NCBI GenBank assembly: GCA_902563055.1
Contig: CACEWE010000003.1
Location: 1,450-65,449, forward strand
Length of the DNA stretch: 64,000 nucleotides
Source of the DNA: an uncultured Gammaproteobacteria bacterium
GTDB taxonomy: Bacteria > Pseudomonadota > Gammaproteobacteria > Francisellales > CACEW01
Direction: 5' to 3'
Under the pieces are notes generated by a model. The model was not told the DNA's origin, searched no databases, and saw only the letters and a program-made list of their open reading frames with translations. Numbering within the stretch: the first letter of the stretch is position 1; every line of letters begins with the position of its first letter. Positions 56,894 to 59,213 of this stretch are shown piece after piece. Position numbers and translations under genes: made by a program.

Positions 56894-58029
56894 AAGCAGT
56901 ATATTGGCACGCCCATCATTTACCTAGAATTTTTATTATACTTTTGTGTGTTTTTAATTTGCTTGGTTTAAGTTATGTGCAAACGCACCCGGTCATGGTT
57001 AAGGCAGATTATTATCAAGAAAAAGTAGCGGCAAGTAAGTTAGCCCAGCAGGCATTTTTTGCAGTGAAAGCCGCACGCATAAAAAAGAAAATCGCCATTA
57101 ACCGTTTTGTTGATCCGCAACAAAGTGGTTTAATAGGAGAAAAACTTACCGATATTACCAGCGATCAAGGTGATATCTATACCAAGCAAACTACGATTAA
57201 CCCAAACATTGCAGCTTTATTTGTTAGTTGGCTAAAAGAGGCAGGTTTAAAGCAGGGGGATACGGTAGCTTTAAACACAACGGGTTCTTTTCCAGCCTTG
57301 AATATAGCGATGCTCTCTGCAATTAAAACCTTGGGGCTAAAGCCAAGGATTGTTTATTCGGTATCTGCCTCTAGTTATGGCGCTAATTTACCAAATTTTA
57401 CATGGCTGGATATGTATCAAGCCTTGGTCAAAGATAAAGTTTTTACATACCCGGTACTTGGGGTTTCGTTGGGTGGTTCGCGAGATAGAGCCCATGGTAT
57501 GAATCCAAAAGCGCGTAAAAAATTAGTAGCCCATATTGCTGCCTCAAACTATCCTTTTATTGATTCACTCCATACCCGTGATGGCATTGCCAAGCGCATT
57601 GCCTTGTTAGAAACAGCATCTAAAAATCCGGTTCGTGCTTATATTAATGTTGGTGGCTCTGGAGCCAGTGTGGGTCTCAAGAAGAAGCTCAGCGGCCAGG
57701 TTGCCATTTCAGGGGTGGCTGTCAAGTCGCTTGCCTCAGGCTTAATTCGCAGCGTTCCAATTAGTCTTATTAATACCAACTCCGTTGCGATGCATTTTTT
57801 AAATCAGGGTGTGCCTGTGGTGAATGCGCATAATATGATGCATGAGCTTATAGGGGTGTATCATTTTCCACGTGCGCCGCATTATCAGCCGGTTATAGGG
57901 TGGGGTAACCAATTTTACCACCAGCGCTATAATCAAGAGTTGGCAATTATTGTTCTAGTGTTATCTGTAGGCTTATTTATTCTTTTAGCGGTACTCTCAC
58001 GCAAGTATATGCTTAAATATACCCGGTAA
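56890..58029 (+). CDS. Third protein of the poly-gamma-glutamate locus (membrane-anchored at both ends; not CapA/PgsA-like by eye)
   Basis: 379 aa, translationally coupled to pgsC, with N- and C-terminal TM helices. Assignment is by context only. Confidence 0.5.
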   Translation: MKAVYWHAHHLPRIFIILLCVFNLLGLSYVQTHPVMVKADYYQEKVAASKLAQQAFFAVKAARIKKKIAINRFVDPQQSGLIGEKLTDITSDQGDIYTKQTTINPNIAALFVSWLKEAGLKQGDTVALNTTGSFPALNIAMLSAIKTLGLKPRIVYSVSASSYGANLPNFTWLDMYQALVKDKVFTYPVLGVSLGGSRDRAHGMNPKARKKLVAHIAASNYPFIDSLHTRDGIAKRIALLETASKNPVRAYINVGGSGASVGLKKKLSGQVAISGVAVKSLASGLIRSVPISLINTNSVAMHFLNQGVPVVNAHNMMHELIGVYHFPRAPHYQPVIGWGNQFYHQRYNQELAIIVLVLSVGLFILLAVLSRKYMLKYTR

Positions 58030-58163
58030 TTTGAAAATAATACTTTTTCAAATCTACAAAAATAGCATTTACGAATTCGTCACTTTAAGCTGGTACTGCT
58101 TGTATTGGATATTTTTCGAAACTGTACTAACGTAATGTTAGGTTCTTTTAAAAGGAGTATGTT

Positions 58164-58538
58164 ATGTGTTTGAGTAAAAAAGTGTTATTTGTTTTTGGAA
58201 TAGCTTTATGCTTACTTTTAGGTTTTGCTAAATTGACTATTGCGCTTGAGCCGGTTAAAGAAATATCAAGTGTATGTATGGTTAACGACAAATTCATGGG
58301 TATACCGCAAATTGAAGTGCATGTTCAAAACAAAACCTACTATGGGTGTTGTAAAAGCTGTAAGCAGACATTAAGGCACACATCACAATCAAGGTATGCA
58401 ATAGATCCTTTTGATGGGTCCACTGTTGATAAAGCACAGGCTTTTGTTGCAAAAGATAGTAAGAACAATGTTTATTATTTTAAGGATGAAAGCAATTATT
58501 CGTCTTATCATTCTGGGAAAGAGCAAAGCCCCCAATAA
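58164..58538 (+). CDS. Small secreted Cys-containing protein with YHS/TRASH-like motifs
   Basis: 124 aa with RBS AAGGAG and a signal peptide. CMVNDKFMG...KTYYGCCKSCKQT, then a degenerate second half DPFDGSTVD...NVYYFKDES. Confidence 0.5.
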   Translation: MCLSKKVLFVFGIALCLLLGFAKLTIALEPVKEISSVCMVNDKFMGIPQIEVHVQNKTYYGCCKSCKQTLRHTSQSRYAIDPFDGSTVDKAQAFVAKDSKNNVYYFKDESNYSSYHSGKEQSPQ

Positions 58539-58596
58539 TAAATGCTCATTATTTGCGTATGATCGTCGATTACGCTTGTGTTGGCATTTTTAAGTA

Positions 58597-59021
58597 TATT
58601 GCCTAAAGAGCATTCACAGAGCTACTGGTTCACGTATTGATGTTGCTGGTTCCATAGCAAGTTTTGGTTTGAAAAAAAACTCAGCGGCCAGGTTGCCATT
58701 TCAGGGGTGGCTGTCAAGTCGCTTGCCTCAGGCTTAATTCGCAGCGTTCCAATTAGTCTTATTAATACCAACTCCGTTGCGATGCATTTTTTAAATCAGG
58801 GTGTGCCTGTGGTGAATGCGCATAATATGATGCATGAGCTTATAGGGGTGTATCATTTCCCTCGTGCCCCACATTATCAGCCGGTTATTGGTTGGGGTAA
58901 TCAATTTTATCACCAACGCTATAATCAAGAGTTGGCAATTATTGTTTTAGTCCTCTCTGTAGGCTTATTTATTCTTTTGGCGGTACTCTCACGCAAGTAT
59001 ATGCTTAAATATACCCGGTAA
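58597..59021 (+). pseudogene. Displaced 3' fragment (about 141 codons) of a second allele of the third PGA-locus gene
   Basis: 58680-59028 aligns without gaps to 57688-58036. About 14 substitutions, all synonymous, so the last 113 codons give an identical peptide. 58597-58679 is homologous but diverged. There is no 5' part. Confidence 0.85.
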
Positions 59022-59213
59022 TTTGGAAGGGGCTAGGTTGGTCTTAGGGCAGTTTACACAGAAAGTGGCTCTGGTTTTCTTGATTTTGACTTATATATTA
59101 AAAGTCTAATTTTATCTAATTAAAATTATTGAAATACTATATACTATATTTGATTTTTATATATTTTTGTGGTATGTTTTGTGTCTTGCTGGGTCGATTT
59201 AGTGAAAAATTTT

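Follow-up and report, generated by a model that had tools for sequence, protein, structure and literature searches.

A decayed gene-end duplicate behind a poly-gamma-glutamate operon of an uncultured marine gammaproteobacterium, probably overwritten by functional alleles

Gene conversion and concerted evolution between duplicated bacterial sequences are known from tufA/tufB of Salmonella and from rRNA operons, while pilE/pilS of Neisseria and vlsE of Borrelia represent silent-cassette systems. Foreign DNA can also be placed beside a homologous anchor: homology-facilitated illegitimate recombination (HFIR) during natural transformation has been described in Acinetobacter and Streptococcus pneumoniae, and 3'-end integrative islands insert at tRNA genes, guaA, or similar sites. 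Here, we analyzed a duplicated gene end in a 64,000-nucleotide stretch of contig CACEWE010000003.1 from an uncultured Gammaproteobacteria bacterium (the window; all coordinates are positions in it unless stated otherwise, and + denotes its forward strand). At the end of a poly-gamma-glutamate operon, the 3' part of the last gene, which we call pgsX, is found twice, once intact at its native place and once as a truncated duplicate. The two are separated by an insert of 544 bp (58034 to 58577) that carries one gene, referred to below as the cargo gene. We consider it probable that the truncated duplicate is a decayed pseudogene relic whose right part has been overwritten by functional alleles, in the window by an allele designated H3. 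In its behavior, the closest match is concerted evolution by gene conversion, and in its architecture, a single-crossover or HFIR insertion. A literature search returned no directly relevant precedent; the case is a new and well-documented instance of processes that are already known and not a new mechanism.

The two gene ends form an ungapped direct repeat of 346 bp with an offset of 992 (57688 to 58033 versus 58680 to 59025). An earlier note, made from the letters of the window alone, had described an ungapped repeat of 349 bp; the repeat is real, but a mismatch at 58034 plus two matches by chance account for the surplus. In ungapped and gapped alignments, the proximal copy of the duplicated segment (copy 1, 57578 to 58033, +) begins with the counterpart of a decayed piece described below (57578 to 57687) and continues with the near-identical repeat, which ends 4 bp past the stop codon of pgsX, the duplicated segment covering ~456 bp in all. 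Within the repeat, the first 179 bp (57688 to 57866) are identical, the following 121 bp (57867 to 57987) harbor 14 differences, and the last 46 bp (57988 to 58033), which take in the stop codon and TTTG, are again identical. All 14 differences are synonymous; they affect 13 codons, with 12 of the differences lying at codon position 3 and 2 at position 1 of leucine codons, and the 113 C-terminal residues are the same in both copies. The formal codon count is therefore in good agreement with the earlier note, which had reported an identical first part followed by about 14 exclusively silent differences and had listed every codon pair correctly. With 23% of the sites being synonymous, the chance of finding 14 of 14 changes silent under neutrality is ~1e-9, which supports its statement that such a pattern is not neutral decay. 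The mosaic identity profile that it had noticed proved to be nonrandom as well: the differences are clustered (~1e-5 by random placement), and a maximum chi-square analysis placed a breakpoint at 57866 (P = 0.01). Overall, the 346-bp tract is 96% identical, whereas identity is ~65% in the sequence adjoining it on the left and similarity is absent on the right.

The comparison with other strains was based on eight short contigs from other metagenome assemblies, 94 to 98% identical to the window, which were recovered by exact-protein look-ups and one metagenome scan (performed with the C-terminal 129 aa, it returned only two loci, one of which was already known). L003 and L013 span the whole structure, while L004, L005, and L006 cover one junction each. 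The left junction is present in L003, L005, L006, and L013 and the right junction in L003, L004, and L013, corresponding to five samples and assemblers. In L001 and L002, both from ENA metagenome assemblies and the former from TARA, we found the empty site that the earlier note had proposed to search for, with pgsC, pgsX, a flank starting with GAAGGGGC, and a 145-aa gene. The cassette is hence polymorphic for presence and absence in this population. The same note had envisaged a misassembly in which two alleles of a heterogeneous population had been collapsed in tandem; such an artefact is excluded by the recurrence of both junctions and of the unique decayed piece in five independent assemblies.

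These contigs also gave the source of the silent differences. The functional copy 1 of L013 harbors 14 out of 14 of the variants that distinguish copy 2 of the window (haplotype H3), and copy 1 of L003 is the same over the 109 bp that it covers. Over 57764 to 58033, window copy 2 and L013 copy 1 differ at one site only, 57783, and none of the codon states of window copy 2 is unseen in functional alleles. Copy 1 of the window represents allele H1, while the homogenized 3' part of the fragment (copy 2, 58680 to 59025, +) represents allele H3 in full. The 14 differences are thus allelic differences between H1 and H3, and they are all silent because both alleles have been filtered by purifying selection; among themselves, functional alleles show pN values of 0 to 0.008 versus pS values of 0.01 to 0.10. 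The proposal of the earlier note that the downstream fragment is the end of a different functional allele therefore stands for the 346-bp block, H3 being found as a functional copy 1, but not for the fragment as a whole, which we regard as a pseudogene. Its suggestion of a separate, later conversion of the identical block is dispensable. Since the functional alleles H1 and H3 differ only once (57783) over 57764 to 57866, the part in which copy 1 of L013 is readable, no second event is needed for the 179 bp, and it suffices that an H3-type allele overwrote all 346 bp at one time.

In the other strains, copy 2 harbors changes of its own. Copy 2 of L003, L004, and L013 carries 5 to 9 private nonsynonymous and 6 to 7 private synonymous codon states, and over the first ~100 bp the three contigs share a relic-specific haplotype comprising S>L, V>L, and R>L replacements in addition to silent changes; further private changes of the relic include G>S, S>P, L>H, and R>C. 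These private amino acid states were found in none of the seven copy-1 or empty-site alleles. The F-haplotype sites 57710, 57715, 57735, 57749, and 57753 are present in copy 2 of L003, L004, and L013 and absent from copy 2 of the window. As 57710 is only ~23 bp away from the boundary of the decayed piece, the absence of the relic haplotype right beside this piece is secure at the k-mer scale.

The left part of the fragment presents a very different picture. This decayed 5' part of the pgsX pseudogene fragment (58578 to 58679, +) is ~65% identical to 57578 to 57687, with a local alignment score of 24 versus 11.3 ± 1.5 for shuffled sequences, and together with the 3' part it makes up a duplicate of the final ~456 bp of pgsX that has no promoter and is truncated at its 5' end. 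Over its 102 bp, the differences are spread evenly over the three codon positions (11/11/13), with 8 gapped columns and with only 38% of the third positions being different. The piece is interrupted by gaps of 6 nt and 1 nt and by an in-frame TAA, and it shows 20 GC>AT versus 10 AT>GC changes. The earlier note had considered the sequence upstream of 58680 to be in frame and homologous back to a stop at about 58594. Neither point was retained: the gapped alignment extends, in another frame, to 58578, and aligning copies 1 and 2 reveals a −1 frameshift in an A8 run (58672 to 58679, +). Copy 1 reads GGT CTC AAG AAG AAG CTC and copy 2 GGT TTG AAA AAA AA-CTC, a deletion of 1 nt, so that in copy 2 the A8 run is directly followed by CTC, whereas copy 1 has AAGAAGAAG-CTC at the same place. 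As a result, RIDVAGSIASFGLKK and LSGQ... lie in different frames in copy 2.

The decayed piece is common to all insertion-bearing contigs that reach it, but its frame is not broken in the same way everywhere. The window, L003, and L004 share the same deletion and have lost the G after the A8 run, while L013 keeps A8G and is in frame there (positions 898 to 945 of L013 versus 58634 to 58680 of the window). L013 and L005 (984 to 997) harbor instead a different frame-breaking deletion of 1 nt, ~30 nt upstream of the A8 run. Because two sublineages carry different frame-breaking deletions, decay of the relic is ongoing. Taken together, the ~65% identity, the indels, the stop, the even spread over codon positions, and the differing frameshifts suggest that the fragment is a pseudogene relic under neutral, AT-biased decay in its left 102 bp rather than a diverged working allele. 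By a rough estimate, the divergence of the decayed piece is about 5 to 10 times that of the strains at silent sites, and the duplication would therefore long predate the sampled diversity.

We propose that the left 102 bp escaped sequence exchange, while the right 346 bp would have been overwritten repeatedly by functional alleles. Two routes could have led to this, namely, intragenomic gene conversion from copy 1 and homologous recombination with DNA of other strains, including empty-site strains, in which the gene end is contiguous with the same flank. If recombination is anchored in the downstream flank, the right end would be replaced most frequently and the left end most rarely, and this would explain the left-to-right divergence of ~35%, ~9%, and ~3 to 5% observed in L003, L004, and L013. 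In the lineage of the window, overwriting would have proceeded up to the edge of usable homology at 58680, thereby installing H3, the homology to the left of this position presumably being too poor for any exchange. Strain divergence is patchy across the operon, ranging from 0 to 11 differences per 100 bp, and the pattern indicates mosaic alleles resulting from frequent recombination in this population.

The situation resembles tufA/tufB in that the copies are near identical over a sharp-edged tract, copy-specific changes are erased, and divergent flanks limit the tract. It differs in that one of the partners is a nonfunctional 3' fragment, with no evident benefit from homogenization, and in that the installed allele is functional in other strains, so that exchange between strains may contribute as much as intragenomic exchange. 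With pilE/pilS and vlsE, the locus shares a promoterless partial copy that swaps sequence with an expressed gene, but here the direction is apparently from the functional gene to the relic, there is one cassette, and the exchanged alleles encode the same protein. A pilS-like variation system was rejected, as no relic-specific coding change reaches the expressed copy. A duplicated fragment that differs by silent changes only can mimic selection or a second functional gene, whereas here it would be a pseudogene that recently copied a functional allele, which calls for caution when dN/dS is applied to paralogous fragments or to metagenome-assembled genomes.

With regard to the origin of the structure, the only join without homology lies at ~58577/58578. 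In our donor model, 58033/58034 would correspond to the gene's own end, and the structure would have arisen by one illegitimate join (58577/58578) and one homologous exchange. This could have been achieved either by single-crossover (Campbell-type) integration of a circular fragment of ~1 kb or by HFIR of a linear fragment. Either route would give the observed structure. In common with such insertions, the locus has foreign DNA beside a homologous anchor and one illegitimate junction and, as expected for the Campbell-type route, a direct duplication (57578 to 58033 at 58578 to 59025) flanks the insert, making reversible loss possible. Unlike the described cases, the event is old here, and donor, circular form, and uptake system have not been identified. 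Recombination of the RecA type between the 346-bp direct repeats could also remove the cassette, which fits the presence/absence polymorphism. The arrangement also recalls 3'-end integrative islands, which leave the gene intact and a displaced partial end beyond the cargo; however, there is neither an integrase nor a short att core here, and the cargo is a single 124-aa gene. The locus provides a natural example, in an uncultured marine gammaproteobacterium, of adjacent decayed and homogenized zones in one relic and of an accessory gene flanked by long direct repeats.

Several observations weigh against a decayed relic overwritten by functional alleles. No donor of the cargo gene was found, its closest nonself homologue being ~50% identical and none exceeding ~54% beyond this population. 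The empty site may be either ancestral or the product of a secondary deletion, i.e., a later pop-out. Copy 2 of L013 contains a 10-N scaffold gap. Moreover, judging from the NCBI contig of 91.7 kb on which the identical cargo protein is encoded, the window probably derives from a metagenome-assembled contig, in which the assembler could have switched copies within the 179 bp, and the placement of H1 in copy 1 and of H3 in copy 2 is that of the assembly. The duplication could hence be real, with H1 and H3 belonging to two strains and the assembler having threaded H3 into copy 2. We consider such a phasing artefact rather unlikely and, to the same degree, its corollary that the contrast seen within the window exists in no single cell. 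It would agree with the metagenomic appearance of the window, whose closest relatives are all short metagenome contigs, with the fact that H3 was seen elsewhere only as copy 1, and with the lack of any copy-2-specific variant in copy 2 of the window; in addition, the identical stretches of 179 bp and 46 bp exceed common k-mer sizes. On the other hand, the decayed piece is truly joined to non-F sequence at the k-mer level, the nearest F-haplotype site, 57710, being only ~23 bp from the last copy-2-specific base, and the old relic haplotype is therefore missing from at least the first part of copy 2 of the window. A distance of 179 bp is also normally bridged by paired reads, and even with wrong phasing H3 would still have to sit in one copy, or in both, in some strain.

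Two further points weighing on the same side concern the step from ~65% to at least 91% identity at 58679/58680, which is found in four of four copy-2 sequences. This step may mark the edge of an old conversion, or else foreign DNA may have been joined there originally. Over the adjacent 46 bp (57642 to 57687), the differences lean to codon position 3 (8 versus 4 and 2), a weak hint of a once-functional diverged allele. In line with the different functional allele of the earlier note, the left part could then be the remnant of a diverged, once-functional allele, foreign or older, with 58680 as the original recombination junction. In favor of this possibility, the residue I in GSIAS of the fragment is nearer to the family consensus (M/V/I) than the G of the window. 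We nevertheless judge it unlikely, as we do its implication that the native gene was replaced or that the donor came from another species. Over the whole 102 bp, the lean disappears (11/11/13), and the third positions, at 38%, are far below the saturation that a diverged homologue should show; the piece has accumulated three indels and an in-frame stop; the different frameshifts of the two sublineages show decay to be continuing; and the variable linker to the right of 58680 is lineage specific rather than foreign.

An overwritten relic could still have a role in the movement of the cassette. It is conceivable, though we give the idea little credence, that it serves as homology arm in a "flip-in/flip-out" cassette that is driven by RecA and needs no recombinase. 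By way of the 346-bp direct repeats, the metal-binding gene would be excised as a ~1-kb circle with the gene-end arm, and the circle may reenter any operon-bearing strain by a single crossover. This would explain the presence/absence polymorphism, why the cargo is nearly identical in diverged backgrounds, and how gene-end alleles are shuffled between the copies. If true, the similarity between arm and gene would keep the cassette mobile.

It is very improbable that selection maintains the 3' fragment because it is expressed as a small protein of 79 to 104 aa, anchored in the membrane and starting at GTG 58707 or ATG 58785. There is indeed an open frame of 104 codons, gene callers gave a 79-aa product on L003 and L004, and the copy of the window encodes an unchanged C terminus. 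However, neither start is preceded by a Shine-Dalgarno sequence, a scan of 57800 to 59300 gave no promoter-like site ahead of the frame, no gene was called there on L013, and elsewhere the fragment carries 5 to 9 private amino acid changes (among them R>C, L>H, and S>P) with a nonsynonymous-to-synonymous ratio of ~1:1. Least credible of all is a site-specific integrative cassette that inserted at the gene's 3' end with a replacement gene end and with its recombinase encoded elsewhere: the succession of intact gene end, cargo, and displaced gene end and the coexistence of presence and absence in the population would suit it, but the unit encodes no recombinase, nothing recombinase-like was seen among the listed open reading frames (ORFs) of the 50- to 64-kb region, a Pfam scan of eight flanking or nearby ORFs returned no recombinase domain, the spacer has no inverted repeats or attC-like hairpin, the homology is graded over 346 to 456 bp without a short att core, and the insert was not found elsewhere in the window, in viral contigs, or behind the operon in relatives. 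An integron-type cassette was rejected for the absence of an attC-like inverted repeat, and phage or island integration was rejected for the lack of an integrase in the unit and among the ORFs surveyed.

The insert starts with the AT-rich leader of the cargo gene (58034 to 58163, +; 28% GC), which is missing in both contigs with the empty site (L001 and L002), is 98 to 100% conserved among the insertion-bearing strains, and contains an AGGAG Shine-Dalgarno sequence 6 nt before the ATG. A promoter scan gave no consensus promoter before the cargo gene. The gene itself (58164 to 58538, +) encodes a putatively metal-binding exported protein of 124 aa with a TRASH/YHS-type cysteine motif (Pfam TRASH PF08394, 29.3 bits versus a cutoff of 27). 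Its hydrophobic, signal-peptide-like N terminus and its conserved cysteines are in agreement with the single small secreted cysteine-containing protein that the earlier note had predicted. A spacer of no significant similarity to pgsX (58539 to 58577), 92 to 100% identical among strains, leads from the cargo stop to the start of the pgsX homology. Among the insertion-bearing strains, the cargo gene and its leader are 98.5 to 100% identical, and the spacer and the decayed piece are 87 to 97% identical, which suggests that selection keeps the former while the latter drift. No second copy of any part of the insert was found in the window, and a viral-contig scan for the cargo was empty. The arrangement of gene followed by cargo that a donor would have is not present in three relatives at ~50% identity.

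A word-based search with the cargo protein retrieved only its own cluster, while an exhaustive HMMER search revealed a family of 550 homologues at an E value of ≤1e-3; a sequence search against solved structures gave nothing meaningful. The family has a core of ~85 residues with a YHS-like second half, and C38, C62, C63, and C66 are invariant in 30 family members. The cysteine pattern and the half of the type DP..G..VDKA...YF resemble TRASH (PF08394) and YHS (PF04945), but the cargo belongs to a distinct family of exported proteins of ~120 to 170 aa; the NCBI name for the identical protein is "YHS domain-containing protein." Fusions to CusF or to a DsbA-like thioredoxin domain occur in some of the homologues. 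A homologue with 40% identity, annotated as hypothetical, is encoded on the mobilizable plasmid pOR1 of Ornithobacterium rhinotracheale (L094, 3980 to 4312); its gene directly follows a DUF3347 gene, and a heavy-metal translocating P-type ATPase is encoded two genes upstream of it. Because the TRASH cutoff is passed, the cysteines are conserved, and CusF fusions and a P-type ATPase neighborhood occur, we infer that the cargo is an exported metal-handling protein, metal binding itself being putative.

The operon consists of three overlapping genes, and all three proteins score above the NCBIfam cutoffs. pgsB (55207 to 56433, +) encodes a poly-gamma-glutamate synthase (TIGR04012 equivalog, 431 bits versus a cutoff of 223, E = 3e-129; Pfam Mur_ligase_M), and its end overlaps pgsC by 11 nt. 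pgsC (56423 to 56893, +; TIGR04011, 117 bits versus a cutoff of 96; Pfam Caps_synth_CapC, E = 2.6e-28) overlaps by 4 nt with pgsX (56890 to 58029, +). The latter is the functional full-length copy, encoding a "poly-gamma-glutamate system protein" of 379 aa (TIGR04332, 279 bits versus a cutoff of 100). The assignment to a PGA locus made in the earlier note was thus correct, PGA standing for poly-gamma-glutamate. Within pgsB, 56244 to 56343 shows 8 to 11 differences per 100 bp between the window and L001 or L006, the neighboring bins showing 0 to 3. A promoter/terminator scan gave no terminator after the operon.

pgsX has 751 homologues, of which the nearest beyond this population is 53% identical; the nearest named one, from a Coxiella sp. 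metagenome-assembled genome, is 49% identical. Scanning a GTDB-based genome collection with the 379-aa pgsX protein retrieved no relative, and exact-protein look-ups of this protein, of P0272, and of the 78-aa fragment ORF gave no record. The close relatives of the locus are without exception contigs from marine metagenomes (TARA and others), and the MurA encoded upstream in the window (50732 to 52006) has at most 59% identity to the species representatives recovered from the GTDB-based collection, which are diverse Gammaproteobacteria. The source is a deep-branching gammaproteobacterium that has not been cultured. The relatives at ~50% protein identity (L008, L009, and L011) harbor the same three-gene operon without the cargo gene and in unrelated contexts, and the insertion therefore appears to be lineage specific. 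In L008, the operon lies between rplM/rpsI and purA; in L009, it is located near MerR and Fic genes; and in L011, it adjoins DHFR and a Y1 (IS200-type) transposase. The pgsB-pgsC-TIGR04332 module itself seems to move between genomes.

Downstream of the relic, the native flank (59026 to 59168) is the sequence that directly follows pgsX in the empty-site strains L001 and L002, where the pgsX stop, TTTG, and GAAGGGGC succeed one another. It contains a promoter-like site at 59098 to 59126. The flank is followed by the gene of 145 aa (59169 to 59606, +) that is the neighbor of pgsX in the empty-site form, where it is called 148 bp after pgsX. Its product belongs to no Pfam family and has an internal repeat (59234 to 59283 and 59399 to 59448) with a VVPNPS motif, and the gene diverges fast between strains, with ~90% identity and an 18-bp indel compared to L003 and L004. 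Further downstream, 60701 to 61078 (+) encodes a Gln-/Leu-rich protein of 125 aa with 33-nt (11-aa) tandem repeats of the ENLEQLQ type at 60810 to 60991 and with weak coiled-coil-type Pfam hits only. Between these two genes, 60061 to 60531 (+) encodes a 156-aa protein with a eukaryote-type RING-H2 finger (Pfam zf-RING_2, E = 2.6e-13). It is flanked by two decayed paralogous units at 59684 to 59817 and 61122 to 61259, one carrying a Cys>Trp replacement and an in-frame stop and the other being a short ORF in which the motif is degenerate; the distance between the first two units of the series is ~647 bp. The ensemble has the appearance of a small tandem family of genes for E3-ligase-like effectors, which, if true, would suggest a host-associated lifestyle.

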